NCBI GenBank assembly: GCA_031403195.1
Contig: JANNSZ010000095.1
Span: 4,681 to 68,680 of the forward strand
Direction: 5' to 3'
Length of the DNA: 64,000 nucleotides
DNA from: Planctomycetota bacterium
GTDB taxonomy: Bacteria; Planctomycetota; Planctomycetia; Pirellulales; UBA1268
Position 1 is the first letter of the stretch. Every line of letters begins with the position of its first letter. Both the position numbers and the translations under genes were made by a program. Below, piece after piece: positions 46,809 to 64,000 of the stretch. A model generated the notes under the pieces. It was not told the DNA's origin and made no database searches. It saw only the letters and a program-made list of their open reading frames with translations.

Positions 46809-46893
46809 TTGATTGAAAGTGCTATGATTGAAGGTAGTTGGATACCCACCGACGGTCGGTGGTGCCCCTCGGGAATCCAGAGTTATCCGGTCA

Positions 46894-46918
46894 ATTAATA
46901 CGGTCTGACCGTATTAAT
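46894..46918. promoter_or_regulatory. Perfect palindrome upstream of the integrase (putative operator)
   Basis: ATTAATACGGTC-T-GACCGTATTAAT: 12-bp arms, ending 29 bp before the ATG. Confidence 0.6.
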
Positions 46919-46947
46919 CCCGGAGGACCGTTTTTTCGGAGGGCATC

Positions 46948-48246
46948 ATGCCACGTCGTACCAAGGGTTCTGTCCCATCTCTTCAGCACCACAAGTCCAG
47001 CGGCCGAGCCCGCGTCACCATCGCCGGCCGCGACTACTGGCTCGGCAAGTGGGGCTCAGCGGATGCGCAACTCGCCTACGAGCGGCTCATCGCCGAGTAC
47101 ATCGCTAACGGGCGAGTCATCCCTCCTCAGAGGGCAACATCTGATCGCGACACGGAAATCCGTGTGCAGTCCTCTCAGCCCGGCATCGCCGTCCGGGCCC
47201 CCGCGAAAGCGGACGCTCCAGATGGGCTCACGGTGGTCGAGGTCGTCACGATGTACCTCGACTACTGCCAGACCTACTACCGAGACCCAAACGGGAAGCT
47301 CACGAGCACGTACGGCAATGCGCTCCAGGCTGCCCGGGCGCTCCGTGTGTTTGATGATACGCCCGCGGCGACCTTCGGCCCCAAGAAGCTCGGCATGATC
47401 CGAGACTCGTTGGCGGCATCAGGTCGCCCTCGCGTGGGATGCAACAAGGTCGTGAAGAGCGTGCGGCGAGTCTTCCAGTGGGCCGAGTCGCAAGAGCTCG
47501 TCCCGCGAGGTACGCACAACTCGCTCAAGACGGTGGAGCCGCTCCGCAAGGGCCGCACGGTGGCCAAGGAGCTACCGCCGATCAAGCCCGTCGACGAGGC
47601 CACTGTCGATGCAACGCTCCCACACCTCCCGGAAGTCGTGGCTGATATGGTTCGGATCCAACGGCTCACCGGCGCTCGCCCGGGCGAAGTCTGTTGCCTG
47701 CGACCGGTGGATATTGATCGGTCCGGTCCGGATTGGAAGTGGCAGCCGCCACAGCACAAGAACAGTTGGCGGGATGCCGAACGCGTCATCATGATCGGGC
47801 CGCGAGCTCGCGAAATCCTCGAGCGGTACCTGGCGCGGGATGAGAAGGCGCACTGCTTCTCGCCGATCGATTCCGAAAAGATGCGAAGCCGTCGGCGCCG
47901 GCTCGAACGCCAGTCGCCGATGACGCCGTCTCAGCGGGCCAGGAAACCCAAGCGTAAGGGGCGCAGGCGACCTCGTGATCACTACGACACGGCCTCCTAC
48001 CGACACGCACTGACACGAGCCGTTGCTGCGGCCAATGCCGAGCGCCTAGCCAAGGACCCGACGGCCACACCGATCGAGGATTGGTCGCCAAACCAGTTGC
48101 GTCACGCTGCCGCAACTGAAATCCGAAAGAAGTTCGGGTTGGAAGCGGCCCAAGTCGTCCTCGGCCACACATCGGCGGACATCACGCAGGTCTACGCCGA
48201 ACGTGACCAGGCATTGGCAGCCGACGTCATACGGCAGATCGGATAG
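46948..48246 (+). CDS. Tyrosine recombinase/integrase
   Basis: LTGARPGEV (R), HKN (K), NQLRH, LGH, TQVY (Y); N-terminal arm-binding-like region. Confidence 0.95.
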   Translation: MPRRTKGSVPSLQHHKSSGRARVTIAGRDYWLGKWGSADAQLAYERLIAEYIANGRVIPPQRATSDRDTEIRVQSSQPGIAVRAPAKADAPDGLTVVEVVTMYLDYCQTYYRDPNGKLTSTYGNALQAARALRVFDDTPAATFGPKKLGMIRDSLAASGRPRVGCNKVVKSVRRVFQWAESQELVPRGTHNSLKTVEPLRKGRTVAKELPPIKPVDEATVDATLPHLPEVVADMVRIQRLTGARPGEVCCLRPVDIDRSGPDWKWQPPQHKNSWRDAERVIMIGPRAREILERYLARDEKAHCFSPIDSEKMRSRRRRLERQSPMTPSQRARKPKRKGRRRPRDHYDTASYRHALTRAVAAANAERLAKDPTATPIEDWSPNQLRHAAATEIRKKFGLEAAQVVLGHTSADITQVYAERDQALAADVIRQIG

Positions 48247-48251
48247 ACGTC

Positions 48252-48632
48252 CTATACCGGCGGCCCCTGCGGTCTCGACGCGCGAGTCATCGCGTCGAGC
48301 CTGCGGCGGGCCGCCTCGATTTCTTCACGGCGGCGTGTCGAGTGACGCTCGACATGAGTTGCAATCGGACGTTGGGCCGGCGACGCGAGCGGGGTAGCGG
48401 AAGCATCAGAACGGCTCCCTGCCTCAATGAATCGCTCGATCGCGGACACGGTGACAAATCGCTTGCCGCCGATGCAGACGCTGTCGAGCTTCACGCCCCT
48501 GCAGCCCTTCATGCACCAGCGGTACAGGGTCGAAACGTTTGGTTTTTTGTTTCCGGTGAGCTTGCCGATGTAGGCGGCAGCCTCGAGAAGGTTCAGCGGC
48601 CTCTCCTCGGCGAGTTGTTGAATATCGATCAT
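48252..48632 (-). CDS. Excisionase-like HTH protein (DUF1580-like)
   Basis: LNLLEAA...PNVSTLYRWCMKGCRGVKLDSVCIGGKRFVTVSAIERF; AAGGA Shine-Dalgarno 6 nt upstream; convergent with the integrase. Confidence 0.82.
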   Translation of the reverse strand: MIDIQQLAEERPLNLLEAAAYIGKLTGNKKPNVSTLYRWCMKGCRGVKLDSVCIGGKRFVTVSAIERFIEAGSRSDASATPLASPAQRPIATHVERHSTRRREEIEAARRRLDAMTRASRPQGPPV

Positions 48633-48646
48633 GGGAAATCCTTGAG

Positions 48647-48704
<58 letters not shown>

Positions 48705-48767
48705 ATATTGGCGAGCGATCACCGCTCGGTGTAGAAGCCAGATTTCGATGTGGCGCAGGCAACATGG

Positions 48768-49028
48768 TTACGTCACTGATTCCTCGACGAAGCGGATGAG
48801 GTCCTCAACGCGGTATCGCCGTATTGGCCGCTTGAATCCCGTCGCTACAAACTCGACACATCGAAGGCGGTCGCGCTTCACAAGAACGCGAAGGGTCTTT
48901 CGGCTTATGCAAAGCAGGTCGGCGGCCTCGTACTCGCTGATGAGGAGAGGCGGAGGCGCCTCGTACGGGCATTGATCGTCGTGCTCGTCAACGTTGCCGC
49001 ATGCTTCGTCGAAATTTTCATGATCCAT
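48768..49028 (-). CDS. Small HTH DNA-binding protein (HTH_17/Xis-like)
   Basis: LLISEYEAADLLCISRKTLRVLVKRDRL...RRYRVEDLIRF. Confidence 0.8.
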   Translation of the reverse strand: MDHENFDEACGNVDEHDDQCPYEAPPPLLISEYEAADLLCISRKTLRVLVKRDRLRCVEFVATGFKRPIRRYRVEDLIRFVEESVT

Positions 49029-49114
49029 GTTGCACCTATTGGCTGGAGGTTTATGGCGAGGCACAACTCTCGGCCCCACGCACGATTCCAATAGAGCGAG
49101 CCAGGGCCGTCGGA

Positions 49115-49137: not shown

Positions 49138-49216
49138 CGGTGACGCCAACTGGAGTTGGGTGGTGGGCCGGGTAGGCTGTGGCTAAAGGTCGCTACTCCC
49201 TCCAGGTCATTCAGTC

Positions 49217-50626
49217 ATGGCTGTCACACGAAAGAGCACTCGCCGATCCAAGCCTTCGCCAGCAACGTCGCGCCCCAGTCGAAAGTTAAACCCTAAGACA
49301 CCCGCGCGATCGGCTCCGATACGGCCATCAAAGAAGGCGAGTCAAATTCTCGACGCAGTGGGGGAGGCTGTCTCTCAGGCGCAGGTACTTGCGACGAAGA
49401 CGCAGGAGCAGTTCACTGCGTGGTCGTCACACCCGCCCACCACTGGCAATCGCCGAACGCGCTTTGCGAACACCCTCGAGAAGTGGGCGAATGAGTCGGC
49501 CGATATTGCCAAGGTGCTAGAGAGGGCTGAGAAGATCGAGGCCCAATTGCCGAAGGCTGTGGCCTGTGCTCCTGATGAACGTGCGGCAAAGATCATCTTG
49601 AAAGGGTTGAGAGCCGCAGACACGATTCGGTTAATGCGCGAGTTCTCCTTGACGGCGCGGTCTCTAGCTAATCGCGCCCGCAAACCACTCACTCCCGAGG
49701 ATGCCGATAAGGTTTGGGCGGATGCGTCAGACTTCGTCAAGCACCTCGGCCAAGTTGCTGATGACCTGCGAGAGATCGGGGCTCTCATCAAAGCCATGCG
49801 GGACCGTTTTCGAGATCCCTCCAAGGGCATCGACACGTCGAGCGACATGCTGCTTCCGGGAACCCCAAGTGTGGATCACTTGGAAGAGATGATCGAGAAG
49901 CTCTTGGGCATGATGCAATTTGCGAGTCAGGAGTTGTCTCAATCTGGGACGCGCGGCAGAAATTGCACGACCATCGCAGAACAACTCGAGGCGGCTATGT
50001 TTGCCGTCAGCCGATACGACGTTCAGTGCGAGTTGTTTCGAACATCAATAAAGGCAGACTCAGACCTGGCTGAGCTTCTCAAGCCTGGCTCCACCAATCC
50101 GTTTTCGCCGATAGCTGCCAAGATCAATGCGGTCATTGAAACGGCCACGCTTAAGGGCCAGTGGTGCAGGGGATGGTTGAATTTTGTGATCAGCCGATTC
50201 GATGCGGCCTGCGAGCTGCCTGCGGAGATGCCGATTCGACTGGCCAAAGGTGTCCATGACTTGCATGCTGTCATCAAGATAGCGAAACAGTGGCGCGGCG
50301 ATGGTGTTGCCGGCTCATCACTGGTCAAGCCGGTTGTCTATGAGCCTAGTCGCTTCCCCGAGGACTCAATCAAGGTGCTTCGGGCGCTTCTGGAGGATCC
50401 ACCTACATCCTCGTCGGTCCACACGATCAAGAGTCTGTCGAAGGCGACCGGCATCGGTGATCAGAAAATTCGTCGCACCCTTCTCAAAGTTCTCGGCCCA
50501 AAAGGGGCTCGTTTCGTTGTAGTGACGAAGCAATCGCGACGCGCAGGAAAGTTCTCGCCTCCCGACACGTACGCGATCCCGACGACTCTCATTGAAGTCG
50601 TCCGTGATCTGCTGACGAAACGCTGA
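49217..50626 (+). CDS. Hypothetical helical protein with a C-terminal winged-HTH-like domain
   Basis: 469-aa ORF; C-terminus IKVLRALL...TIKSLSKATGIGDQKIRRTLLKVL...TYAIP. Confidence 0.7.
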   Translation: MAVTRKSTRRSKPSPATSRPSRKLNPKTPARSAPIRPSKKASQILDAVGEAVSQAQVLATKTQEQFTAWSSHPPTTGNRRTRFANTLEKWANESADIAKVLERAEKIEAQLPKAVACAPDERAAKIILKGLRAADTIRLMREFSLTARSLANRARKPLTPEDADKVWADASDFVKHLGQVADDLREIGALIKAMRDRFRDPSKGIDTSSDMLLPGTPSVDHLEEMIEKLLGMMQFASQELSQSGTRGRNCTTIAEQLEAAMFAVSRYDVQCELFRTSIKADSDLAELLKPGSTNPFSPIAAKINAVIETATLKGQWCRGWLNFVISRFDAACELPAEMPIRLAKGVHDLHAVIKIAKQWRGDGVAGSSLVKPVVYEPSRFPEDSIKVLRALLEDPPTSSSVHTIKSLSKATGIGDQKIRRTLLKVLGPKGARFVVVTKQSRRAGKFSPPDTYAIPTTLIEVVRDLLTKR

Positions 50627-50646: not shown

Positions 50647-50755
50647 CCCATTGCCCGACGTCTGGGATACCGGAAGCGTCGGCCACCTGTTGCAGCGGCT
50701 TCGTTGCGGGTGGGCGGGATTTTTTAGCAAGCGGCCTGAAAGGGCCGGGAAAAGG

Positions 50756-51694
50756 ATGGGCGTTATGGAGCTTGATGAAGGCTTCTCAGACGAAGCATGG
50801 GATGAAAATGCTGATTCAGGTTGCGAGATCAGCCGGGGTAGCAGTCCGGGCGAGCGAGATGATGGCGCGGTAGGTGTCGCCGATGATGTGGCGGCCCGTG
50901 TGGTGGATGAACCCGCGCCGGATGCCGTTGATGGCGGCGGTGATGGCGACATCGATTCGGCAGGTGCTACTGGCCGCGAGCCAGCTCAACCTGTCTTTGA
51001 TGAACGCGAGGCAATCGTAAATGACAGGGCCCGGGGGCCAGCTCATGAGATCGCCGTGAAGGTCGAGGAAGTCGCAGCCATTCATGGCTTCATGATCGAC
51101 CTCGACTGCGGAATTCTCAATCCTGATGTTCTCGGGGCAGACGCGGTGGCTTCTGCCGAGGCGCTCTACAACGAGCATGTGAGCCACTGGCTCGACCGTG
51201 ATCCCGTGCTGGCGAAAGCAGAGGTACGTGATACGGGCGGCGGCCTCCACGTGCTATTGTGGCTCGACCAGCCGATCCTGTGCGGTAGTGAAGAGGCTCG
51301 CGAATGGGACGCCATTGCCCGCGGCATCCGCAATGCTCTCCCGGGTGACCCGAGCGTGAATGGCATCATTGCCATGACGCGACCGGTGGGGGCGCTGAAT
51401 ACCAAGTATGAGCCGCCTCGCGAAGTTCGTCAGCTTCGCGAGGGGCACCCAATCACGCGCGATGAGATTCTTGCCTTCGACCGACGAGTGACCGATCACC
51501 CGGCGCGATTATGGATGACGGTTTTCTGTGGTGGCGAGCGTGTGTCACCGTGCCCGATGTGCCGGGCCGAGGGTTCATCGCTCGGTGTGGCGGGCAGCTG
51601 GCAGTGTCGGTGTTACGGGTGTGGGCGGGTTAGTGCCGCCTCGCTCGTCTATCGGTTTTTTTCGAACGACTTCCTTACGAAACGAATGGGGTGA
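50756..51694 (+). CDS. AEP-superfamily primase (RepB'-like) with a C-terminal Zn finger
   Basis: Motif I FMIDLD, motif II DTGGGLHVLLWL, D...TRPVGALNTK; CPMC...CYGC. Confidence 0.75.
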   Translation: MGVMELDEGFSDEAWDENADSGCEISRGSSPGERDDGAVGVADDVAARVVDEPAPDAVDGGGDGDIDSAGATGREPAQPVFDEREAIVNDRARGPAHEIAVKVEEVAAIHGFMIDLDCGILNPDVLGADAVASAEALYNEHVSHWLDRDPVLAKAEVRDTGGGLHVLLWLDQPILCGSEEAREWDAIARGIRNALPGDPSVNGIIAMTRPVGALNTKYEPPREVRQLREGHPITRDEILAFDRRVTDHPARLWMTVFCGGERVSPCPMCRAEGSSLGVAGSWQCRCYGCGRVSAASLVYRFFSNDFLTKRMG

Positions 51695-51698
51695 TGAC

Positions 51699-53612
51699 AT
51701 GGTGAGTTTTGCTGACTTTGATAGCCGTGGTGACCACAACTGGATCGTGCGAGACCTGAAGGCGGCACGTGCCGCGCTGGTGGCAGTGGAGCGGGGGTGT
51801 ACCCGTCCCAAGCTGATCTCGAGCGTGACGCCGGCGGGCCAATTTATTGGTGATGCACACGAGACGATTTTCGAGGTGATGGGCCATCTTCGTGGGTCCG
51901 GCCGACTCTATCGGCAGGGAAATACGACGATCTTCCTGCATGGCCGCACCAGGCCGGACGGTAGCTGCGGTCCGACGCCGATCGTAGTGGATGGCATCGT
52001 CACCAAAGTGGCCTCGCCGATCATCGGCAACGTGCTGATGTGCCGGGCCCTCAAATCCAATCCGAGTGGGAAGGGGGCGAAGGCCGATCAGCCGGTGGAG
52101 TACGAGACCCAGTTTCCGGTGCCTCTGCCCGTACTCCAACAGGCGTTCGTCTCGGACGGCAGCATGGACGAGATCCCTGAGGCCCGGTACATCGTCAATC
52201 ATCCTGTCTACGACAAGGATTTCACGTGGCTGGATGTCGGCTACCACGATCTGCAACGCATCCTCGTATGCGGAGAGTCGTTTGAGCCTGTGTTCCTGGA
52301 CCCGCCGCGGTTCGAGACACCGCCTATAGAGGTTGCGGACGTCCTTAACCGGTTGCCACCGCTGATCCGCCGAATGGTTGAGGGCTTCCACTGGAACGGT
52401 GCCGTTGACCTCATCAACTATATAGGTGCGGCACTGATGATCCCGCTGATGCCGGCGCTCGTCGAGGATGGTCACCCGGGTGTGATGTTTTGGGGCAACC
52501 AACCGAGCATTGGAAAATCACTCGCCGCCCAATGCCTCGCCATTCTGAAGGACGGCGAGCAGGCATCGCCGACATCAGTAGAGGGTGGCGCACGCGAGGT
52601 TGAGAACCAGATGGCGAGCGAGCTCAACGATGGGCGGACGGTGCTTTTTATTGACAACCAGAAGGGCATGCTCAATATCCCGATCATTGAAGCCAACATG
52701 ACGGCCAAGCAATTAGCTATTCGTGGTTTTCACGTCCAGAAAAAGGTGCGGCGGCCCAACGACCTGCTCTGGCTCATCACGACGAACGACGCCATGCCGA
52801 GCGATGACCTCCTTTCGCGATGCATTCACATTCGATTGTGCTACGAGGGGCTGCCAGATTCGCATCGGTTTGCCATGTCGGACGGCGAGCTTGTGGCTTT
52901 TGTCAGCCACAATCGATCGGCCATCCTGGCCGAATTTGCAGGCATGATCGGCGCGTGGTTGGCGGGTGGACGGCCTGAAGCCGGATCACCTTGTCGCTTC
53001 GCCATTGCCGGTGGCGTGATCGGCAGCGTGCTCACCTACAACGGACTGTCCGGGTTCTTATCGAATACCCGCGAGGAAATCCGTGAGAACTCTGCTAAGC
53101 AACAGCAGTTGATCGAGCTTGTGGGGCGGATCATCGACAGCCGACTGCCAGGGTTCATGTGGGAGATCGATGGCGACATCGATGTAGCCGATGCTGTGTT
53201 CAAGAAAGAGGGGCCGCCAAAGAGCCCAATGGAGCAGAAGGACTGGGTGCCATACCTCATAGGAGTAGGCGCGATCCCCCCGTCGTGTGACACGCCCCAG
53301 AAGCAGAAGAAGGCCGTCACGCAGTACATGGGGAGCGTCGTCAAGGTGCCTATTGAGGTCGCATATGGCGAGGTGACGGTGCAGGCCATGATCGTGAGTC
53401 GCCCACTGCGAAGCCGGCGGTCGTGCTACGTGCTTGCCGTGTGCGGTCTGCCGCCGGCACCAGGGGGCGCACCGGAGAGTAGCAGTGACCCCAGTTGGCT
53501 CGCCGGCGCCGACGCCGACGACGAGGCTAGCACCGAGTCGGCCGCTGACATGCCCGACGATGAGGCCGGATCGGCTGACATCAAGGAGTTGGGTGAAAGT
53601 TTATGGGATTAA
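51699..53612 (+). CDS. Primase-associated P-loop ATPase/helicase
   Basis: Walker A GNQPSIGKS, Walker B VLFIDN, sensor ITTN, DDLLSRC arginine finger; starts 4 bp after the primase stop. Confidence 0.75.
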   Translation: MVSFADFDSRGDHNWIVRDLKAARAALVAVERGCTRPKLISSVTPAGQFIGDAHETIFEVMGHLRGSGRLYRQGNTTIFLHGRTRPDGSCGPTPIVVDGIVTKVASPIIGNVLMCRALKSNPSGKGAKADQPVEYETQFPVPLPVLQQAFVSDGSMDEIPEARYIVNHPVYDKDFTWLDVGYHDLQRILVCGESFEPVFLDPPRFETPPIEVADVLNRLPPLIRRMVEGFHWNGAVDLINYIGAALMIPLMPALVEDGHPGVMFWGNQPSIGKSLAAQCLAILKDGEQASPTSVEGGAREVENQMASELNDGRTVLFIDNQKGMLNIPIIEANMTAKQLAIRGFHVQKKVRRPNDLLWLITTNDAMPSDDLLSRCIHIRLCYEGLPDSHRFAMSDGELVAFVSHNRSAILAEFAGMIGAWLAGGRPEAGSPCRFAIAGGVIGSVLTYNGLSGFLSNTREEIRENSAKQQQLIELVGRIIDSRLPGFMWEIDGDIDVADAVFKKEGPPKSPMEQKDWVPYLIGVGAIPPSCDTPQKQKKAVTQYMGSVVKVPIEVAYGEVTVQAMIVSRPLRSRRSCYVLAVCGLPPAPGGAPESSSDPSWLAGADADDEASTESAADMPDDEAGSADIKELGESLWD

Positions 53613-53645: not shown

Positions 53646-53960
53646 CGATGGTGAAGTGGTGAAGACATGGTGAAGACCCAAAAATCAGTCTTCACCATCG
53701 TTTGGATGCAGAACACTAGGCCTTTTTGAGAAAGTGGTGAAGTGATGAAGACAAAAGACAGTGTTGGGACAGCAAATCAATCGAGGCATCTCATGCCTCC
53801 AGGGCACGCTACCGGAACGCCCCTCGGAACGAATCCAGCCGGACATGGTGTTTCATCTTCACCACTTCACCATTCTTCAAAAACCACTGGAAAACAAGTC
53901 CCAAACGACGGTGAAGACCCAATAAACAGTCTTCACCATGTCTTCACCACTTCACCATCG
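53646..53960. repeat. Iteron-rich long inverted repeat (putative replication origin)
   Basis: ~105-bp arms built from TGGTGAAG units; outermost ~32 bp perfectly inverted; internal hairpins ggtgaagac-N10-gtcttcacc. Confidence 0.8.
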
Positions 53961-56213
53961 GGCGGCTTCCTGCTTGCCTTCGGTGCGGCCCAGTACCCGT
54001 TTCGGCGCTGGGTGCCCGCCTATGGTCGCGTGATCACCGGCCGCTTCGCGCTGGACACGGAGACGACCCTCATCGATGACACCCGGCCGGCCAGCATTCC
54101 CGCGCTCGTGCTTGGCATGGCCTTCGATGGGCAGCAGGGTTGGTTCGTGACGGCCGAGGACATGCCAGCGTTCCTTGCCGCACACCCATCGAACCAGCTG
54201 ATCTTTCACAATGCCGCCTTCGACCTAGCGGTGCTCCAGGCGACTTTTGACCGTCGAGGGATAGCCGCCGACGTCTATGCCCGTGTCGAAGCCGGTCGGG
54301 TCGCAGATACCCAGATCCTTGCGCGGCTCATCTCGCTTGCCACAAATGGCCACACCGCGCGTAACCAGTGTTCCCTCGACTACTGCTCCCAAAAATACCT
54401 TGGCGTCGCGCTTCCCAAAGACCTTAAGACACCGGGCGGCGAATGTGTCCGGCTCACCTTCGGCAGATACCATGGCCGACCGTTTGAAGCGCTACCGGTC
54501 GAACACTTGACCTACGCCGCGATGGATCCAGTGGCGACACTCCTGCTGTTCGACCGGCTGAAGGCTGAAATCCCCACGATCAAAGCCAATGCGTATCAGG
54601 CGTTTGGTTACGCGGATGAAAGCTGGCTCGCACGGCAATGGAGCACGCACGGGCCCCTCACGCACGACATTCAACTCAAGGCCAGCATCGTCCTTTACCA
54701 GCTCTCGCGTACGGGTGTCTTGATCGACCAACGCCGCCGCGAGGAGAAGGTGGCGACTCTGCAACACGTCGTCACTGAAACCCGCCGGATGCTCGCGCTA
54801 GCCGGACTTCCAGTTGAAGGCAAAGGGGCCAAATCAGCTCTCCTCAAGCGCATCGAAAGGTTGTCTCGCGAGCATAAGAACCTACCACTCATCCACACGG
54901 AGTCTGGCCAGATAGCAACGAGCGAGGAGCAGCTCAAAGAACTCACCGTATTGGATCCCGTGCTCGATGTCTTACTCCAGCATCGGCAAGCCACAAAACT
55001 TCTCTCGACCTACGCCTCCAAGATGCATCCGGGGAAGCGCGTCCATGGCAAGTTCAACTACCTCATGAGCACCGGCCGGACGAGTTGCGGCGGCGGGTTC
55101 AACCTCCAGAACTTGCCGAAGGAACTCGACGCCACCAGCAACCACGAGACGACGATCCGCGGCTGCTTCGTGCCGGCGCCTGGAAAAGTTTTCGTGGTGG
55201 TGGACTACGCCCAGATCGAGTTGGTCGTGCTGGCGTGGGCCTGGAAACACCAAATGGGCTTCGGGGACAGCCTTCACAAGATCGTCACTAAGGGCCGCGA
55301 CATGCACCGGCTCATCGCGGCGGAAGTGCTCGGCAAGGATCCAGCCGACGTCACGAAGCAGGAACGCAATGCTGCCAAACCTGTATCGCTCGGTCGCCCT
55401 GGTGGTCTTGGCTGGAAAACGATTCAGAAGCAGGCCTTGAATACGTACGGCGTCGAGCTGAGCGAGGAGCAGGTCCGTGAGCGGATGCAGGCGTATGAGA
55501 CCCTGTGCCCGGAGCTGACCGAGCACCTGAAGACCCGCGTGGATGCCGGTCTCGAAATCGCGCAGGCACTCGGGATGACGCTGCTCGCCTACAACGCTGC
55601 ACGCGGCAAGCCTACGCGCTATCCTAAGGTCACTGATGAAGAGCCCACAGGTTGGCTCGGCGGCATGCTCATGAAGGTTCTTGAATCGCCGGGCCCCATG
55701 ACGCGAGGCAACAGCGATACGAATTCATCACCACGGCTCTACACGCCCCAGGAGACCAACTTCTTCTGGACCGCGGCAGAGAGGCTTTCGGCATTCGGGC
55801 TCGACGAGAAGCACATCAAGGACATCCGGGCCCGAAAGCCATCACGGTCACTTCGAGATGCCGTGGCCGGGATCTTCAGTCGCGAGCCCATCATCACAGC
55901 AACTGGCCGCATACGCGCAAATGCCAGCTACTCCGCATGTAGAAACGGAATCATGCAGGGACTAGCCGCTGACGGTGCGATTCACGCGCTCTGGAAGCTC
56001 ATGCGGGCCGGCTACACGATCACCAACTTCATTCACGACGAAGTGATCATTGAGGTGCCTGAGGATGAAAATCTCCCTGCCACGATCGCCGACATCGAAC
56101 GGCTCATGAAGGAGGGTATGCAGGTTGTGGTTCCTGGCGCCAATGTCCGCGTGGAGACTTCGGTGCGGCGGTCGTTTAGCAAGGCGGACGAGATTGCTTC
56201 GGCGAGCCCATGA
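53742..56213 (+). CDS. Family A DNA polymerase (3'-5' exonuclease plus polymerase, no 5' nuclease)
   Basis: ExoI LDTETT, ExoII HNAAFD, ExoIII YAAMD, TGRTSC..NLQNLP, motif A DYAQIEL, motif B RNAAKPVSLG, motif C IHDE; start uncertain. Confidence 0.92.
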   Translation: MMKTKDSVGTANQSRHLMPPGHATGTPLGTNPAGHGVSSSPLHHSSKTTGKQVPNDGEDPINSLHHVFTTSPSGGFLLAFGAAQYPFRRWVPAYGRVITGRFALDTETTLIDDTRPASIPALVLGMAFDGQQGWFVTAEDMPAFLAAHPSNQLIFHNAAFDLAVLQATFDRRGIAADVYARVEAGRVADTQILARLISLATNGHTARNQCSLDYCSQKYLGVALPKDLKTPGGECVRLTFGRYHGRPFEALPVEHLTYAAMDPVATLLLFDRLKAEIPTIKANAYQAFGYADESWLARQWSTHGPLTHDIQLKASIVLYQLSRTGVLIDQRRREEKVATLQHVVTETRRMLALAGLPVEGKGAKSALLKRIERLSREHKNLPLIHTESGQIATSEEQLKELTVLDPVLDVLLQHRQATKLLSTYASKMHPGKRVHGKFNYLMSTGRTSCGGGFNLQNLPKELDATSNHETTIRGCFVPAPGKVFVVVDYAQIELVVLAWAWKHQMGFGDSLHKIVTKGRDMHRLIAAEVLGKDPADVTKQERNAAKPVSLGRPGGLGWKTIQKQALNTYGVELSEEQVRERMQAYETLCPELTEHLKTRVDAGLEIAQALGMTLLAYNAARGKPTRYPKVTDEEPTGWLGGMLMKVLESPGPMTRGNSDTNSSPRLYTPQETNFFWTAAERLSAFGLDEKHIKDIRARKPSRSLRDAVAGIFSREPIITATGRIRANASYSACRNGIMQGLAADGAIHALWKLMRAGYTITNFIHDEVIIEVPEDENLPATIADIERLMKEGMQVVVPGANVRVETSVRRSFSKADEIASASP

Positions 56214-57532
56214 GCAGATACGAAAAACCGAGGCGCCGAATCCAGGTGCCTGTTCGTCTCGGTATCCGTCGTGACCACTCTCCTACGGTTACGGGAGAAA
56301 CACCTCCACCTTAAGCCCCAGGAGAAACCGCCATTCCCTGTGTTCGATCGAGAAAGCCCGCCTTGAAGAACACCACTACGAGCCCATTTCGTCCCTACCC
56401 ATCACCACCCAGAAGCGCCAAGAACCAACCACCCTCGCTCCAAAACCGATTCCCGCCTTCTTATCAAACATCACACGAGCCCCAAATTCGCTCCCTAAGC
56501 CCCGAATTCCAGCCAAAGGTCTCTCCACGCCTAGAACACCCTAATAACCCGTTAGAAGCCAAATGCGGGCCTCCTATCGCCACACAACGCCGCGACCCAG
56601 AACTGCGTGAATGACCTGGGCTAGAAACCACCATCAGCCCGAATTTATCACTCTCATTCGCCGCTCTTTCCGCCGTCATCCGCAGAAATGTTATCACTTC
56701 ATGCCGTATTACTTTCTCCCACCATCTCTAAAATCAGCCACCAGCACGCACGCTCAAGAAATGCCTAAAAAGCAGGCATGATAAATTCCACTGCTTCTTT
56801 CGTGAGCGTTATATTTCCTAGGCGTGCTGCGGAATAACGGCGGGCTTAGCGGCGGCTCTTATTACGCTCTAGATGTATTTGGCGTAATTCGAGAAACGGG
56901 GAATAACAGCAAACGCACAAATGGGGTTATTCCGGAAATGTAAAAGCCTCGTAATTCATTATAAACAGAATTGGCGTTATTATGTCTTGTGCGAATAGCC
57001 GCCACGAGAAATGTTAATTTATCACCACGCGAAGCCAGGGCCCACGAGCCAAGCCAAGTAACCCGAGCATGGAGCCAGGGACAGCACGCGAGCTTCATTG
57101 GGGCGTCAGCGAATTTCACAAAGAGTGCGAAGGCAAGGGAGCGAGACCGGCGAGAAAGCCCCCAGAAACCAGCCAAGAAACGCACTCGAGGGAAAGCCAG
57201 GAACGAGTCGCGTGGTTTCTCCTCCCCCATGAACGCCACCAATAGCACCGACCCCTGACTCTCTTCCCGCCTTCATCCCGTCTGTCGCGTAAAAAATGCC
57301 AATGCCAAGGCGGTCAAGGTGCGAACAGCTAAATCCTGCTCAAAAACCGGGCATATGAAGGGATAGCGGATAGTAGTCAGCGAGTAGGCCCCAGAGCCAT
57401 CGCATTCTCAAGCCGGCCAGCCCCATCGCGATTCCAGCCGGCGATCGCTCCCAAACCCAGCCTGTGAAATTCCGCTGGCTCTCGCTGGCTCTTTCGCCGC
57501 TCTTCCCCGCCCTCATTCAGGAGAACCTTTCA

Positions 57533-57709
57533 GTGACCCCATTTGTTTTGTGTGCCCTGCTTTCCGTCGGCCTCGCTCTCGCCCTCGCTCGTGAAAGCCG
57601 ACTCCGCAGGGCTCTCCAAGCTCTCGTCGGCAGGCTCCTCAACCAACTCAGAAATCCCCCACCCGAATCTTTCACTTCTCGCTCACCTCAATATCGGAGA
57701 CGCGTATGA
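57533..57709 (+). CDS. Small membrane protein
   Basis: AGGAG Shine-Dalgarno, GTG start, hydrophobic helix then RESRLRRALQAL; stop overlaps the next ATG. Confidence 0.65.
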   Translation: MTPFVLCALLSVGLALALARESRLRRALQALVGRLLNQLRNPPPESFTSRSPQYRRRV

Positions 57710-58374
57710 CCAGTTTCATTTTTCTCATCGCTGCGTTCTGTGCCTGCTGCTCCTGGCTCGTCTGGCTGTTATGGCGAGTGCTCATGCTCGCGTTCATGTC
57801 GTTCCGCAGGGCCGCCAGAATTTTCACGCTCGGTATTTGCGCAATTGCCGCGTGCACCCCAGGGCCAGTTCATGCAGGCTGGTTTTGGGGACCCGATCCG
57901 AAAGTAGAAGCGGCGAACCAGGCTCTTCAAAGCGCTGCACAGATAGCGACGGAAGCAGCGCAGACTCAATCAGCCCAGCAGGCACAACTTCTTCACGCGA
58001 TCGAGCAGCTATCCAGTGAGCGAACCCACCTGGCAAACCATCTGCGGAACCTTGGTGACTTTTCGCAGCGTGAGTCTGTATGGGCGGCTGCATTGAACGC
58101 GATAGGCCCAGTGCTCGTTGCTGTGAGTGTCCTGATGGTCGCGGTCATGGCTTTGTATGTGCAAGCCAAGGCGAGCCCAGGTGATTCCCAGGCGGCAGCG
58201 GCTCTCGTTGAAGAAATCCTGAGTCCCCAAGGTTCGCTCTTCGTAGGCGGGCATCAGGAACCGGGAATAGCCCAGCACGAGAAGCAGCAAGAGAAAATCG
58301 CCGGCAGGAAATTCTCAGGGCTCGAGCATGCGTACCCAGACTCTTCACCACACACCCAGGACATGCCCTTCTAA
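57706..58374 (+). CDS. Membrane protein with a coiled coil
   Basis: N-terminal hydrophobic segments, Q/A-rich coiled coil, further TM helix. Confidence 0.75.
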   Translation: MTSFIFLIAAFCACCSWLVWLLWRVLMLAFMSFRRAARIFTLGICAIAACTPGPVHAGWFWGPDPKVEAANQALQSAAQIATEAAQTQSAQQAQLLHAIEQLSSERTHLANHLRNLGDFSQRESVWAAALNAIGPVLVAVSVLMVAVMALYVQAKASPGDSQAAAALVEEILSPQGSLFVGGHQEPGIAQHEKQQEKIAGRKFSGLEHAYPDSSPHTQDMPF

Positions 58375-58376: not shown

Positions 58377-58745
58377 ATGAGCCACATCGTCGAAATCAAA
58401 ACCGAAATCCGAGACGAGCAGGCCGTACGGTCAGCTTGCTCTCGGCTGCAACTCGAACCGCCCGAGCACAAGACCACGAAGATGTTTTCGGGAACCGCGA
58501 CCGGTCTGTGCGTCTACCTTCCGAAGTGGTGCTATCCGGTCGTCTGCGATCTCAAGACGGGCCAGATCAAGTACGACAACTACGAAGGCCACTGGGGCGA
58601 GCAAAAGCATCTCAACTCGTTCCTCCAGGGGTATGCCGTCGAGAAAGCCAAGATCGAAGCCAGGAAGAAGGGGCACTCGGTCACGGAAACCAAGCTCCAT
58701 GATGGCTCGATTCGTGTGACCGTTCGTATTGGAGGTGCGGCATGA
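58377..58745 (+). CDS. DUF1257 (Ycf35-like) protein
   Basis: MSHIVEIKTEIRD...W.YPVV...YDNYEGHWG...Q.YAVE...DGSIRV. Confidence 0.85.
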   Translation: MSHIVEIKTEIRDEQAVRSACSRLQLEPPEHKTTKMFSGTATGLCVYLPKWCYPVVCDLKTGQIKYDNYEGHWGEQKHLNSFLQGYAVEKAKIEARKKGHSVTETKLHDGSIRVTVRIGGAA

Positions 58746-58948
58746 CGAGCACCCCAACAAGAACCATCGAGATCACCGTGTCGCCTGAAGGAGCCACGAG
58801 CATCAAGACGTCGGGCTTCACTGGCTCCACATGCAAAGACGCCACGCGAGAACTGGAGCGGGCCCTTGGAGTTGCCGGCCGTGAAAGCCTGTCGCCGGAG
58901 TTCTATGGGCAGGTCACGAACGCCGAGCAGATCCGCCAGGGCTCGTGA
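58742..58948 (+). CDS. DUF2997 protein
   Basis: IEITVSPEG...TSGFTGSTCKDATRELERALG...PEFY. Confidence 0.85.
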   Translation: MTSTPTRTIEITVSPEGATSIKTSGFTGSTCKDATRELERALGVAGRESLSPEFYGQVTNAEQIRQGS

Positions 58949-58980
58949 CCGTCCAGAAACGCCACCTCAAGGAACCCCAC

Positions 58981-59409
58981 ATGCAAAAGACCAAACATCA
59001 CGAAGCTGTCGATGCCAATTTCGAGAAGCTCCTGGCCGAGATCGCAGAACGGCAGCGCACTCGTCTGGAGACCGCCAAGAACACGCTCAAGACGGACATC
59101 ATTCCTTCGCTCACAAAGTTGGGTGTCGCAGTCGTGCAGGCGTCGTATTCGGGCTACGGCGATTCAGGATGCGTGGACACGATCGACTACCTGGATGCCA
59201 ACAACAAGCCCATCGATATCGAGCCACTGGACCCAACCCTCGCCCCAAAGCTCGATCGGATCTTCCATGAGTTCTTGCCAGATGGTTTTGAGATCAACGA
59301 GGGCGGCCAAGGAGACATCACGCTCGAGGTCCAGAAGGGCGCCGTCACGATCGAGCACCAGGAGAACTTCGTCCAGCACACCGACAGCACCCAGGAGTAC
59401 ACGCTCTGA
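58981..59409 (+). CDS. Hypothetical protein (DUF6878-like)
   Basis: YSGYGDSG...GFEINEGGQG motifs; AAGGA Shine-Dalgarno before ATG 58981. Confidence 0.75.
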   Translation: MQKTKHHEAVDANFEKLLAEIAERQRTRLETAKNTLKTDIIPSLTKLGVAVVQASYSGYGDSGCVDTIDYLDANNKPIDIEPLDPTLAPKLDRIFHEFLPDGFEINEGGQGDITLEVQKGAVTIEHQENFVQHTDSTQEYTL

Positions 59410-59747
59410 TGGCGCACGCGTATCACCATGCCGTCAGCTCATCCCGCAAGTTCGGTGGCGAGCCTGACGAGTACCTCAAGTACCACGAATGGCTCGATGC
59501 TTCCAAGAGCCACATGGCGGACTTTCGACATCGGGCCCTACGGCATCACAGCGAGGGCATCTTCATGCTGGAGGCTCTCTTCGGCAGCACGATCACGCTC
59601 TCGACCGGCCGCATTCTCCCCGTGAGGTTCATCGGAGAGCAGCACGTGATCGAAGACTTGGGCCGTATCCCGACGGTTGCCGATTGGCTCGCGAAGATCC
59701 ACCCGGAGCCATGGATGCTGGGACGCGGTCATACGATCAGCGAGTAG
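59409..59747 (+). CDS. His-rich hypothetical protein (DUF6915-like)
   Basis: MAHAYHHAVSSSRKFGG..DEY..YHEWLDASK..D.RHRALRHH...EQHV.ED.G.IPT..DW. Confidence 0.8.
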   Translation: MAHAYHHAVSSSRKFGGEPDEYLKYHEWLDASKSHMADFRHRALRHHSEGIFMLEALFGSTITLSTGRILPVRFIGEQHVIEDLGRIPTVADWLAKIHPEPWMLGRGHTISE

Positions 59748-59814: not shown

Positions 59815-60110
59815 GAGTTGAGGTCGCGGCTCTGATATCAACTCGGACCTTAACTCTCGAGAACCCCCAAAAACAAGGGCTTTTTAGCAGAGTTAAGGAG
59901 TTGAGGTCATTCCCCGTTTCGCGAGCCCAATTCCGATTGCACCACACGACCGCCATAAAAAAGCCGCCGCCACCACGAACATGATTTCGGGCGGTCAATT
60001 CCGGCAAACACCTCAACTCCTTAACTACCAGCAAAATCCCCGTGAAAACGGCGCTTCTGCGAGTTGAGGTGGGAGTTGAGGTCGCCGAGGCACATTCACT
60101 CCTTAACTCT
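59815..60110. repeat. Second iteron/inverted-repeat structure (GAGTTRAG units)
   Basis: agttaaggagttgaggt versus acctcaactccttaact flanking a ~95-bp spacer; further GAGTTGAG/CTTAACTC units in both arms. Confidence 0.75.
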
Positions 60111-60216
60111 GCTGGCGGCGCTTCTCGGGCTCACGCTCCATCGCTTGCCCGGCACCTACTGGCCGTTCTTGCAGCGATCCATATCTACACCCATTCCACA
60201 CACCCTCGGAGTTCAC

Positions 60217-61770
60217 ATGCCCCGACCCAAGACCACCTCATCGACAACACCGCCCACCAACTCCTCTCTCACCACCCGCCTCCACGAACTCATCTCCGCG
60301 TGCTTCTCCGGTATCTGGATCACGACGCACGAACCGACCGAAGCCATACGCGACCTGACGACCTTGTGCCGCGCTGAATCCTGGCGGCTTGGTACCTGGG
60401 ACTGTGATCGCGGCATGACCTTCCCCTTCGAGCCCATCCAGATGCCCGGCGTGACCGATTCCCAAGATCCGCTCGCCGTCATTCGCTCGCTCCCAGATAT
60501 CGCCAACGGTTCCGGCACCACGCTCATCACCTTCGAGAACCTGCATCGCTTTCTCGGCTCAACAGAAATCATCCAGGCACTCGCTCGCCAACTTCATGTC
60601 GGCAAACAGACCCGATGCTTTGTCGTCGTGTTGGCTCCGGACATCCAACTGCCGCCCGAACTCGAAAAGCTGTTCACCGTGATCGACCATGAGCTACCCG
60701 GACATACCCAGCTCGAAAAGATCGCCAAGGAAATCGCCACTCAGGAGAACGAGCTGCCCACGGGTGACGATCTTGCCCGCGTGATCGAAGCCGCCAAGGG
60801 ACTGACCGCGAGCGAAGCCGAGAACGCCTACTCACTCTCGCTGGTCAGGCACGGCAGACTTGAGCCCGAAACGCTCTGGGAGCTGAAGAGCCAACAGCTA
60901 AAAAAGAGCGGCCTGGTTTCCCTTCACCGTGGCACCGAAAACTTCCAGCAACTTGGCGGCCTGGAAAACCTCAAGGCGTTCTGTCTCCGAGCGATGAGGA
61001 GGCAAGCGGGAACGACAGACGGCCCAACACCAAAGCCTCGCGGTGTCTTGCTCCTGTCGCCTCCTGGTTGCGGCAAATCTCAGTTCGCAAAAGCCCTCGG
61101 CAACGAAACGGGCCGGCCTACGGTTGTCCTCGATGTCGGTGCCTTGCTCGGTTCGCTCGTCGGTCAATCAGAGAGCAATGTCCGGGCGGCTTTGAAGCTG
61201 GCTGACGCGATGGCTCCCTGTGTCTTGTTCTGCGATGAGCTGGACAAAGCACTGGCTGGAGCTTCGTCATCCGGGCAGACAGACTCCGGCGTGACAGCTC
61301 GGGTCTTCGGCTCACTGCTCACCTGGCTCAATGATCACGAGAGCGATGTCTTCTTCGTTGGTACCTGCAATGACGCCTCGAAGTTGCCGCCCGAGTTCGC
61401 GAGAGCTGAGCGATTCGACGGCGTGTTCTTCGTAGACCTGCCTAGCCGTGATCAGAAGGACGCGATCTGGGGCATCTACCTGGGTGTGTATGGGCTCGAC
61501 GCGAAGCAGGCTCGGCCCAATGACGCCAACTGGACCGGGGCGGAGATCAAATCGTGCTGCCGTCTTGCCAGTCTGTTGGACGTGCCCCTGATCCAAGCCG
61601 CTCAAAACGTCGTGCCTGTTGCCGTGACTGCTGGCGACAAGGTTGAGAGTTTGCGGCAGTGGGCTTCCGGTCGGTGTTTGTCGGCGGATCGGGCGGGCGT
61701 CTATTCGCGGGATCAGGGCCCAGTGAATGGACGAGCGAGACGGGTGATGCGAGAGCCGGGGGTAAATTGA
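60217..61770 (+). CDS. AAA+ ATPase, Ycf46-like
   Basis: Inactive N-terminal AAA-like domain, LGGLENLK, PPGCGKS, FCDELDK, PPEFARAERFD, WTGAEI, LRQWA; GGAG Shine-Dalgarno. Confidence 0.9.
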   Translation: MPRPKTTSSTTPPTNSSLTTRLHELISACFSGIWITTHEPTEAIRDLTTLCRAESWRLGTWDCDRGMTFPFEPIQMPGVTDSQDPLAVIRSLPDIANGSGTTLITFENLHRFLGSTEIIQALARQLHVGKQTRCFVVVLAPDIQLPPELEKLFTVIDHELPGHTQLEKIAKEIATQENELPTGDDLARVIEAAKGLTASEAENAYSLSLVRHGRLEPETLWELKSQQLKKSGLVSLHRGTENFQQLGGLENLKAFCLRAMRRQAGTTDGPTPKPRGVLLLSPPGCGKSQFAKALGNETGRPTVVLDVGALLGSLVGQSESNVRAALKLADAMAPCVLFCDELDKALAGASSSGQTDSGVTARVFGSLLTWLNDHESDVFFVGTCNDASKLPPEFARAERFDGVFFVDLPSRDQKDAIWGIYLGVYGLDAKQARPNDANWTGAEIKSCCRLASLLDVPLIQAAQNVVPVAVTAGDKVESLRQWASGRCLSADRAGVYSRDQGPVNGRARRVMREPGVN

Positions 61771-62109
61771 GGCGGTGAAGTTGGTGGGTGCGGCGGCATC
61801 ATTCCCAAGTACTCCTTCGAGCCAGGATCGCTTCCCGCCGTTACGCCTTTCGGCCTGTGTGCGTCAGGGTGCCACATCGGTCTTCGGCCAAATCCGTCGG
61901 CGGATAATCTGCGGGGGCCATCTGATGTGTGCCGTATCGCAAGCGATCGCGGACGCCTAGCACTCGAATGCCTGCAGATTCAGACTGATGAAGTACTTCA
62001 AGCGGCCGGGGCATGACCCAACACTCTGGAGCGGGGACTCGCTTAGCATGTCCGATTACCGTACTGCCAAGCTTCAGACCGATTACCCAGGATTTATCGA
62101 GGTGCTTCA

Positions 62110-64000
62110 GTGAAGCTTCCCGGGCCGCCCACATCGCTGGTGGATGAGCTAGCACCATTTTCTCCAGTCGACCTGCTCACCAAATGCGCCGCTGCACAGT
62201 TGTGCCCAGATAACGCCCAGCGGCTCTTTCGACTGGAGCATCTAGCCATCAACGCCGCTTCGCTTCCCCGGGGACCAGATCGACCGTGCATGAGTGTGCC
62301 TCGGTATCGCCGATTGCTTGAAAGCGGCATGGGCGTCGATTTTCTGGAAGACCCATTTTCTGCGCCCTTAGTCGTACCTGTCGCATTTACCGGCGGAAGC
62401 TACCTCACACTTACCGGCCTGACAGAGCATCTGCGGCCGGGGGTCGACCTCTTGCTATCAGTTGCGATGGTGGCCGTCGACTTTGCGGGCACACGATTTC
62501 GTGACAGCATCGCCCATCCTTGCCAGGCACTTCTCCACCTCAGTGATGTAATGTGTTCTCTTGCTGGCCTTCGACGTGGGCAAGCACCGCCAACTGAGCC
62601 CAGGCTCGTTCTTCCCACTGGGGCTAGGCTGGCAGAACTTGCCCGAGCAGTGTCGTGGTCTGACGATCAGCTACGTGAGCTCTTTTCTGAGACAAACGTC
62701 TCGCCGACAGCATTGCATCACTTTGAGCTTCCGCTCGGTGCTCGCGTGCCGGAAAACACGGCACCCGGCTACGGGCCACTGCTCGAACGGCCCCTGATTC
62801 GCGATGGTCAAGGTGTTGTGATTGCACTCCCGCACGCACTGCTGACCGCCCTCTCACGGTATGTACTCGGCACCGCGCATGGCCACGGGCTCTTGAAGCC
62901 ACTGGCAGAAGCATTTCATGCAGCGGCGGTGGCCAGGGCCAGCCGTTGCCTGGATTCTATGGGGCTTCATGACTTGGCTGCCGAGCACATGACTGAGCCG
63001 TCCGCACCAGGACTCTCCGAGCAAATGCGATGGCTTGACACGGACAAACTTTTGCACGTGATTATGGTTTCGGATGACCTGAAGACGTACACGCGAGATC
63101 ATCCGTTTGGCGAGGGCCACTTCCCGCCAGGAGTGGAACTAGAACGCCGGTTCCGAATCGGGCTCGACCGTGCCAAGGCGAGTAGGACTCCCCCCGCGAG
63201 ATTCTCGGACTAGTCGTTGTGTGCGGGGTTTCTAGGTCCGCCATGATCGACATGAATCGAGGAGAGGATGACCAGCAGGTCTTGCTTATGAGCCTTGAGG
63301 AGCTCGATGCCTTAAGCGTTTTGGAACCAAGCAACCCGCTCTATTTGTGGCACTTCTCTCGTGCCAGGGAACGATTTCGCAAATCGTCGGCGATCCTTGC
63401 ATTCTCGGTCTCTGACGAGCTGTTTTTCTACCGGAAGTACGACTCGAGCTTTTATTTGGGCGACACTCCAGTGCCGACTCTTGCATCCTTTCAGCCAAAC
63501 GCTGGTGATTCGCTGTTTCTAGAAGCCCAAACGAAACTTGATCCGCACGCTCTTCCAGCTATTCAAGGTGGGTTTTGCGAGTGCGTCCGAGTCTTCCCAG
63601 ACTCTTCCATTCCGGTGTATGCCCCGAGGGTACCCTCAGCCGCCGAGCGCGCACACTGCATCGAGGTTGAAGGCGGTGCCATCTGGGTCTATACACGGCT
63701 CCCGCAGCCGTCATCCGTGTCGCTCGCTCACACGATGGCGTGTCGCCTGGTAGAGTCACTCGCTTTCTGGCTGGGACGAATGGCAAATGAGTCCTTCGTG
63801 CGAGCGTCTGGCGCCAATCGTGCTCGCATTGAGGTCTGCGTCATTGCCCCGGATCAGTGGATCTACCCGTGTGTAGCACCGTCGGTCGCAGCCGTTGATC
63901 CGGGCATCGCTGTGTCAGTTATTGATGAGCGATCGCTTCGTGTGGAGTTTCCCCCGGAAGCCATGTCTCTCATCTGCGGCGCTCGCTACTACGAAGAGCG
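62110..64000 (+). pseudogene. Large hypothetical cargo gene, frameshifted at the C6 tract 63190-63195 and running off the window
   Basis: ORF 62110-63213 stops just after the C6 run; the -1 frame (REILGLVVVCG...LYLWHFSRARERF...) is open from the tract to base 64000. Confidence 0.7.

Follow-up and report, generated by a model that had tools for sequence, protein, structure and literature searches.

The window analysed here is the whole stretch of 64 kb from a Planctomycetota bacterium (G000:C95:4681-68680), the right-hand border of which lies 547 nt before the end of the contig. Its single tRNA gene according to ARAGORN and Rfam, tRNA-Pro(GGG), is followed by a tyrosine integrase gene, two minus-strand genes for helix-turn-helix (HTH) proteins that are convergent with it, and a set of plus-strand genes that are likely to serve DNA replication and are grouped around an iteron palindrome. 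The GC content is about 0.65 to the left of the tRNA gene and drops to 0.53-0.61 between about 48.0 kb and the window end, with a value of about 0.58 for the element. An initial annotation of the window, made from the letters alone, had proposed tRNA-Pro, the integrase and convergent Xis-like and HTH genes, and then an archaeo-eukaryotic primase (AEP), a P-loop ATPase, an iteron inverted repeat, a family A DNA polymerase (PolA) and a module of membrane protein, DUF1257, DUF2997 and AAA genes. All of these features were recovered at or near the positions that it had assigned. Those that precede the module are listed here.

46733..46809, plus strand: tRNA-Pro(GGG), integration target, attL side (ARAGORN; Rfam RF00005, 62.6 bits)
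46948..48246, plus strand: tyrosine integrase (PF00589, 8.9e-12; phrog_1, 4.6e-26)
48252..48722, minus strand: DUF1580 HTH protein (PF07618, 1.8e-14)
48768..49091, minus strand: HTH_17 (excisionase/MerR-like) DNA-binding protein (PF12728, 8.4e-07)
50651..51694, plus strand: probable AEP-fold primase with a C-terminal zinc ribbon, 347 codons (invariant motifs, language-model neighbours)
51528..53612, plus strand: P-loop helicase, read as superfamily 3 (SF3) type, candidate initiator, 694 codons (Walker motifs, PHROG matches)
53646..53960, no strand: iteron palindrome of 315 bp, candidate replication origin (GGTGAAGA copies, inverted arms)
53742..56213, plus strand: family A DNA polymerase with a 3'-5' exonuclease domain (PF00476, 1.3e-35; PF01612, 1.1e-08; phrog_17, 3e-74)

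Replication genes and the iteron palindrome

The polymerase scores 123.5 bits with PF00476, compared to a cut-off of 34.3, and its best PDB matches in a phmmer search are the Klenow and Taq enzymes (3.9e-20), with the apicoplast enzyme ranking lower (1.6e-09). The exonuclease motifs Exo I-III (DTE, NAAFD and YAAMD) and the polymerase motifs A, B and C (DYAQIE, RNAAK..G and HDE) are all intact. The protein is a family A polymerase with a proofreading exonuclease, and is predicted to be active.

The word GGTGAAGA occurs in 13 exact copies in the 64-kb window, compared to an expectation of 1.75, and none of 100 shuffles reached this number. Seven of the 13 copies fall in 53658-53948, between the helicase and PolA genes. 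They are part of a palindrome with 60-nt inverted arms (53646-53705 and 53901-53960, 85% complementary), in which 41-nt arms that include degenerate copies are nested. A palindromic iteron layout between helicase and PolA is found in every relative examined (G424, L050, L047, L002, L003, L004 and L001; these are introduced below). The iteron word itself is shared by G424, L050 and L047, and is shifted elsewhere, to GTGAAGA/GACGTGAAG in L002, to GGGTGAAG in L003 and L001, and to GTGGTGAAT in L004. A conserved layout with lineage-specific words is the pattern that would be expected of an origin and its binding protein.

The first approximately 80 codons of the PolA open reading frame (ORF) overlap the right half of the palindrome (53742-54010). 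The frame is open through this half in the window, G424, L050 and L002, but in L004 an ATG is located after the repeats, and the true start of PolA is therefore uncertain. Either the iterons encode a His/Ser-rich N-terminal extension of PolA, or the true start may be non-canonical.

The 694-codon ORF upstream of the palindrome (637 amino acids with a start near 51699 in the public gene call) has Walker A (G272-K273) and Walker B (D319-N320) residues that are invariant in 29 homologues. It matches the C-terminal parts of PHROG primase/polymerase families (phrog_10537, 2e-20; phrog_19930, "DNA polymerase/primase", 1e-05). The number of relatives in an exhaustive search was 100 with a threshold of E<=1e-30 and 1,202 with E<=1e-10; many are fused proteins of 800-1000 amino acids that are matched in their C-terminal half. 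The relatives of one such fusion carry the UniRef name "SF3 helicase domain-containing", and the neighbour of the helicase in the Atlas of language-model clusters is DUF5906. SF3 helicases are marked by a P-loop NTPase core of the D5/P4 type with Walker A, Walker B and motif C, and are often fused to a primase. The protein has no Pfam match, and in the PDB its sole and weak alignment is with RarA (E 0.21). We read the ORF as a putative SF3-type replicative helicase and possible initiator, a class assignment that stands without confirmation by a curated profile.

The 347-codon ORF (309 amino acids with a start near 50765 in the public gene call) carries the least secure label of the locus. The AEP superfamily is marked by a motif I with DxD, a motif II with a histidine, acidic and flange residues in motif III, and an RRM-like fold. 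In an alignment of 31 homologues of the ORF product, D112-x-D114, G160-x-H162 and T205-R206-P207..N212-x-K214 are invariant, as are four cysteines (C263/C266/C283/C286). The nearest Atlas clusters are annotated as RepB_primase (16-36% of members), Zn_ribbon_DnaG and AEP-TOTE. Because of these invariant motifs and cysteines and the language-model neighbours, the protein is likely to be an AEP-type primase with a zinc ribbon. An hhalign comparison of its profile with a fused 915-residue protein (L034) returned a probability of only 2.5%. Public databases contain 124 homologous clusters (at 90% identity) of this protein, none with a Pfam domain, and 92 of the helicase; all of them are annotated as hypothetical. 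Identities across these 92 helicase and 124 primase clusters are 50-84%.

Recurrence of the core and a complete relative

A search with PolA retrieved copies of 70-72% identity on three contigs of metagenome-assembled genomes (MAGs), and a copy of 39% identity on a fourth, each of them preceded by homologues of the primase and the helicase. The primase-helicase-PolA triad is present in the MAG loci L002, L003 and L004 and in genome G424. A scan of metagenome contigs with a helicase profile returned 18 loci; a primase homologue is found directly upstream in 17 of them, and the eighteenth begins inside the helicase gene. PolA follows the helicase in eight of the nine metagenome loci that reach at least 300 nt past it. 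Within an even sample of 401 genomes of the phylum Planctomycetota, PolA was detected at E<=1e-60 in three, the window's own genome included. More distant PolA copies (35-37% identity) in two further genomes lie beside an integrase and fused primase-helicases, of 916 amino acids without a Pfam match in one case and of 869 amino acids with a Toprim domain in the other. No relative was detected when IMG/VR was pattern-scanned with the helicase profile.

The loci L056, L057 and L058 begin like the window with tRNA-Pro(GGG), an integrase and DUF1580, and their integrases are 63-71% identical to that of the window. Other relatives are located at tRNA-Met (L044, L049 and G424), tRNA-Glu (L061), tRNA-Arg (L002) and tRNA-Ser (L003). 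The relatives use one of two integrase families, the second of which is found in L002 and L003. The DUF1580 gene next to the integrase is kept in L004, L056, L057 and L058. The initial annotation had named a combination of integrase, AEP, ATPase, PolA and DUF1257 to be looked for in other genomes. The core of this combination indeed recurs, in L002-L004, G424 and the metagenome contigs and beside five tRNA species, but the DUF1257 module turned out not to belong to it.

The copy in G424 is located on a 450-kb contig at a tRNA-Met gene, the 3' end of which is repeated 36 kb downstream. The attachment (att) cores are 16-nt copies of CACACCGGGCCTACTT at 6242 and 42207 (composite coordinates), 35,965 bp apart. 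Empty sites, in which tRNA-Met is followed by the right flank of G424, are found in G009 (83% identity, 234 nt) and G007 (91%, 56 nt). The two empty sites and the att cores identify the G424 element as a discrete insertion with known ends. It contains 37 called ORFs, among them the integrase, primase, helicase and PolA genes and a gene for a LuxR-type regulator, together with the GGTGAAGA iterons. PolA is followed by three minus-strand genes that are common to four relatives (two conserved unknowns and a SprT-like gene). The remaining content includes nucleases (Exo_endo_phos, two HNH and one PD-(D/E)XK) and defence cargo, namely a patatin and SMODS pair resembling CBASS, and a type III methylase/ResIII pair.

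In L002, at most about 15 kb separate the tRNA gene from the host HtrA gene, and this interval holds the core and a few small genes only. An empty site for L002 was not found among the MAGs of its relatives, which were too fragmented. The MAGs of L002, L003 and L064 are labelled Candidatus Kuenenia, yet their contigs have a GC content of 60-72%, and the taxonomic label looks loose. The pyruvate dehydrogenase E2 of L002 is 97% identical, over 187 aligned residues, to that on contig C103 of the window genome.

Two further observations concern the tRNA-Met site. A region to the right of the G424 attR (L069, composite 42252-49554) has no counterpart in G007, in which the flank continues only from 49554 onwards; this suggests a further variable island in tandem. 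In L084 (G004:C287), a 41-nt exact repeat of the tRNA-Met 3' end occurs 3.5 kb downstream (171-250 and 3675-3715), and points to a different small island at the same attachment site.

Nature of the element and rival explanations

The MAG that contains the window (97.98% complete) has no match to Terminase_6N, TerL_ATPase, Terminase_3, Phage_capsid or Phage_portal, and none to CagE_TrbE_VirB (PF03135) or Relaxase (PF03432), which were the transfer families searched, other relaxase families and TraG/VirD4 not being included. Each of these searches gave positives in control genomes. Among eight other element-bearing genomes, Terminase_6N is found in none, and Phage_capsid and Phage_portal in one each; these two matches are both on contig C182 of G003, and not on its element contig C195. 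The entire G424 genome has no Terminase_6N, Phage_capsid or Phage_portal match, and no capsid, terminase, portal or conjugation family is present among the annotated proteins of its element, of which 20 of 37 ORFs were scanned singly in Pfam and 27 of 37 in a pooled PHROG scan. In this pooled scan of 50 ORFs, HNH families dominate among the 25 listed of the 59 matched families. When four unannotated G424 proteins were compared by tblastn with 50,697 phage records, three had no match and one matched HNH/DUF3150 genes. General library scans of the window ORFs, in a copy that is incomplete at the right, gave no terminase, portal, capsid, relaxase or VirB4 match. Neither PolB nor Cas1 was found among the proteins scanned, and the only polymerase is of family A. 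The view taken initially, that no capsid or conjugation genes are visible, is thus borne out in the window scans, in the hallmark searches of the MAG and in the att-bounded G424 element, where neither virion genes nor a type IV secretion or relaxase set were recognised before attR among the annotated proteins.

We consider it reasonably probable that the window shows the left-hand portion, of at least 17.7 kb in total, of an integrative element at the 3' end of tRNA-Pro(GGG), that this element belongs to a recurrent family of Planctomycetota, and that it operates by the mechanism outlined here. Judged by gene content, the family is composed of a conserved core (integrase, one or more HTH regulators, primase, helicase, iterons and PolA) and variable cargo. 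The element is probably capsid-less and self-replicating; its episomal replication and its route of transfer are what we infer from the genes. The integrase and the HTH/Xis-like proteins would excise the element in circular form. Next, the iterons would be recognised by the helicase or a partner, which would open the origin, as suggested by the iteron layout and by words that differ between lineages. The primase would prime synthesis, and the element's own PolA would copy the circle, in keeping with its intact catalytic motifs and the strict linkage of the genes. The element might spread by an unknown or hitch-hiking route, or might persist mainly as a replicating, defence-carrying island. The proposal of the initial annotation, a self-replicating integrative element or satellite built around PolA, gains support from the recurrence of the core and from G424, with autonomous replication as its conditional part.

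It is possible, and we propose it tentatively, that these elements represent an undescribed class of PolA-based counterparts of pipolins, which would excise, replicate as episomes from the iteron origin with a complete private replisome (AEP-type primase, SF3 helicase and proofreading PolA), shuttle defence systems among Planctomycetota, and spread without virion or conjugation genes of their own. That the class might be new had already been suspected at the outset, and a description of an integrative element family with a primase-helicase-iteron-PolA core was not found in the literature searched, the coverage of which did not extend to supplementary tables.

In the portions of the literature that deal with them (PMC11551731, PMC5695915), pipolins appear as defence platforms with a family B polymerase. 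As far as these portions describe them, they are similar to the present elements in being integrative, in having direct repeats at tRNA genes, a tyrosine recombinase, their own polymerase and variable defence cargo, and in the absence of capsid genes. The 16-nt cores of G424, the two empty sites and the defence cargo are the corresponding traits here. In contrast, the pipolin polymerase is a primer-independent enzyme of family B, whereas the enzyme of the present elements belongs to family A (PF00476) and is accompanied by a primase and a helicase as distinct proteins and by an iteron origin. Casposons, which are likewise described as carrying family B polymerases, differ further by the Cas1 integrase and terminal inverted repeats, where tyrosine recombinases are found here.

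A family A polymerase catalytic domain beside a helicase is known from SCCmec-type elements, where passages on the CCPol-MP-Cch2 genes describe it (PMC10061031, PMC10201439). In those passages, the staphylococcal cassette chromosome (SCC) elements resemble the present ones in being chromosomal and integrative, and in using a PolA catalytic domain adjoining a helicase for their own replication. However, CCPol is described there as N-terminally truncated, with most of the exonuclease domain gone, and as acting as a primase with a small SSB-like partner. The elements reported here have a full Klenow-like PolA with exonuclease motifs, a separate primase-like gene and a tyrosine instead of a serine recombinase, and they occur in a different host phylum.

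Cryptic mobile genetic elements with AEP primases, integrated at tRNA genes and without phage or conjugation genes, form class iii in the relevant part of Kazlauskas et al. 2018 (PMC5862659). They share with the present elements the integration into tRNA genes by tyrosine recombinases, the direct repeats, and the primase and helicase. A family A polymerase or an iteron palindrome is not described as part of them in that portion of the paper. In the sections of Czernecki et al. 2023 (PMC10201439) that concern accessory polymerases, an "adventurous" PolA linked to an AEP primase is reported from Planctomycetota, Verrucomicrobia and Nitrospirae, and AEP-PolA fusions of Planctomycetota are placed within one PolA cluster, in these sections without element context. 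In the present elements, unlike in those fusions, primase and PolA are separate genes with the helicase and origin between them.

Capsid-less integrative elements with their own polymerase have so far had either a family B enzyme (pipolins, casposons) or a truncated PolA that acts as a primase (SCC). If our interpretation is correct, this category would be extended to a recurrent family in which a full proofreading PolA is combined with primase and helicase as separate proteins and with a clearly recognisable iteron origin. The family would also provide a compact and testable minimal replisome with its origin, a possible basis for vectors in planctomycetes, a phylum with few genetic tools, and add a vehicle for the exchange of defence systems among Planctomycetota. 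Nor is the family rare in environmental sequences, in which the helicase accounts for 92 clusters and the primase for 124 (at 90% identity).

Several points weigh against this interpretation. The primase-like protein has no match in Pfam, PHROGs, NCBIfam or PDB, whether as a single sequence or as a profile, and neither the primase fold nor the helicase class is backed by a curated profile or a structure. About a dozen G424 ORFs are without annotation. A divergent structural gene could have been missed because only 25 of the 59 PHROG families were listed, and unfamiliar capsid types are possible because the hallmark searches covered selected families and little is known of the viruses of planctomycetes. 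The contig ends before attR of the window copy, the size and right-hand content of which lie beyond the available sequence. The attR that the initial annotation expected as a repeat of the tRNA 3' end was not found for this copy in the rest of the contig, which ends 547 nt past the window, and not convincingly elsewhere in the assembly; both were searched with the 3' half of the tRNA, by exact 13-mers and by local alignment. In addition, the window lacks the trio of fam12/13, fam6 and SprT-like genes that is found on the minus strand after PolA in four relatives. Finally, no circular form and no excess of copies were seen in assembled public contigs, which are uninformative either way; in X1 the depth was 10.4-11.6 for the element and 14.5 for the left flank, and X2 has no flank contig.

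Among the rival explanations, the one that survives best is a helper-dependent phage satellite, P4-like or of the phage-inducible chromosomal island (PICI) type, which, once induced, would replicate by means of its own replisome, and whose packaging would depend on the capsids of a helper virus encoded outside these genomes. Such satellites likewise combine an integrase, HTH regulators and a primase-helicase module at a tRNA site, lack a full set of virion genes, and carry defence cargo, as in P4-like hotspots; moreover, the nearest relatives of the AAA ATPase and the helicase are partly in phages. To our knowledge, however, these satellites usually have no DNA polymerase, whereas the present elements have their own PolA. 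The complete member, at 36 kb, is large for a satellite, and no helper, capsid-redirecting or capsid-remodelling gene, small terminase or cos/pac feature was identified. Searches for helper-type hallmark families gave no match in the window genome (five families) or in seven of the eight other element-bearing genomes (three families), and no relative was found among IMG/VR viral contigs with the helicase profile. We regard a satellite as unlikely.

A prophage of an unfamiliar planctomycete virus, with structural genes that are too divergent for recognition or lie in the unassembled right part, appears still less probable. Genes typical of phages are present (PolA, primase-helicase, HNH nucleases and an AAA ATPase with a PHROG match), and the truncation by the contig end and the dozen unannotated ORFs of the 36-kb relative would leave room for others. 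However, the att-bounded G424 element has no matches to terminase, portal or HK97 capsid families, and much of its 36 kb is filled by restriction-modification, CBASS-like and nuclease genes. The interval of L002 between tRNA and HtrA, with its core and few small genes, also argues against a virus.

A decaying or domesticated island, one that no longer moves or replicates and whose replication genes would be remnants or have a role in host repair, is very improbable: the missing post-PolA genes with a gene-poor stretch of 1.5 kb in their place, the Upx-like gene reduced to an N-terminal piece that is followed by a frame change, and the contig depth without a sign of extra copies would fit it, but all catalytic motifs of PolA are intact, the frames of primase, helicase and PolA are open and remain in close linkage on many contigs, the layout of the iterons is conserved, presence and absence at a precise att site are polymorphic among related genomes, and the patchy spread (3/401 genomes) is the opposite of what a fixed host function would show.

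Cargo, contig end and neighbouring elements

The remaining features of the element, which lie outside the core, are the following.

48649..48703, no strand: (GT)27.5 microsatellite upstream of the DUF1580 gene (TRF: period 2, 27.5 copies, 100% matches)
49217..50626, plus strand: orf469, variable-region gene (open reading frame without family assignment)
56214..57705, no strand: low-GC (0.53) stretch without a confident gene (composition; small ORFs without Pfam match)
57706..58374, plus strand: orf222, putative membrane/coiled-coil protein (hydrophobic stretches by eye; sub-threshold matches only)
58377..58745, plus strand: DUF1257 gene (Pfam, 21.3 bits, just below the cut-off of 22.2)
58742..58948, plus strand: DUF2997 gene (Pfam, 9.4e-15)
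58945..59409, plus strand: DUF6878 gene (Pfam, clear match)
59409..59747, plus strand: DUF6915 gene (Pfam, 6e-46)
60064..61770, plus strand: CDC48-like AAA ATPase of 568 amino acids, part of a five-gene module (PF00004, 1.2e-27; phrog_8638 over the full length, 4.8e-86)
62110..63213, plus strand: Upx-like anti-phage protein, N-terminal part only (NCBIfam NF042954, 8.5e-15; PADLOC Upx, 2.3e-11)
63219..64000, continuing to the contig end, plus strand: orf443 (open frame; no family match)

The DUF1257-AAA module is cargo and not conserved core; it rides in at least two PolA elements and is not specific to them. Its assignment to the cargo follows from the distribution of close AAA homologues, which are found in 21 of the 401 Planctomycetota genomes, compared to three for PolA. 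Orthologues of the five genes are located inside the G424 element (42-83% identity), and the module is absent downstream of PolA in L002, L003, L046 and L050, within the available sequence. Within one family, 15 of the 20 genomes carry AAA homologues, often with two to three copies per genome, some of which contain stop codons. The ATPase is 29% identical to the AAA-ATPase of Corndog-type mycobacteriophages. In the literature searched, DUF1257 and DUF2997 are mentioned for cyanobacteria and plastids only, and are not described as a mobile or defence module.

On contig C6 of the window genome (L022/L023), the five-gene module is present once more (51-97% amino acid identity), in a low-GC patch among host genes and without the core (C6:43738-47352). 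An AAA 3' end of 147 nt is found in duplicate 5.3 kb further along C6 (52619-52765), past a gene for a kinase/FGE-sulfatase protein of 1557 amino acids.

The Upx-like ORF further to the right covers positions 21-278 of the 1240-position NF042954 model. Between the HTH genes and the primase, orf469 has no match in Pfam, PHROGs (best 0.0074), NCBIfam or PADLOC, and no homologue at any related locus compared. This non-conserved gene is exactly bracketed by 37-nt inverted repeats (49112-49148 and 50613-50649, 84% complementary), which could mark it as an inserted cassette. The start of the DUF1580 gene is probably an internal ATG near 48632. The (GT)27.5 microsatellite sits between the two HTH genes, just upstream of this likely start, at a point where public contigs are interrupted; being prone to slippage, it could switch the expression of the regulator. 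Contig joints reported at 46767, 53647 and 53959 have 31-nt sides at repeats, and were rejected as graph artefacts.

Contig C95 ends in a repeat of approximately 125 nt that is present at three sites of the genome (the last 81 nt of L025, C95:64681-69227; 4475-4600 of L024 on C80; and C4, 77559-77680), and that also ends contig C80. It is not an insertion sequence, no transposase lies beside the full copy on C4, and no Rfam match was obtained; a continuation of the contig was not found. The candidates for attR were other tRNAs or at chance level, including a 16-nt match in C19 without a change in GC content and a 21/26 match in C103. Contig C103, which holds two family-typical genes, was also considered as the continuation of the window element, and was rejected because it carries a tRNA-Arg and an integrase of its own and is a separate element.

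This second integrative element of the genome (L062, C103:1-9000) is located at tRNA-Arg(TCT), has an integrase that is 81% identical to that of L002, and is cut off by the start of the contig. Synteny with L002 is observed, and the two conserved genes that follow PolA in the relatives are present; the position of the PolA core is taken by a DnaB-like protein of 361 amino acids. At the start of contig C84 (L063, C84:327-4828), a third integrase with 35% identity to that of the window is found together with a DUF1580 gene and an ORF of 770 amino acids, and may belong to a further element.

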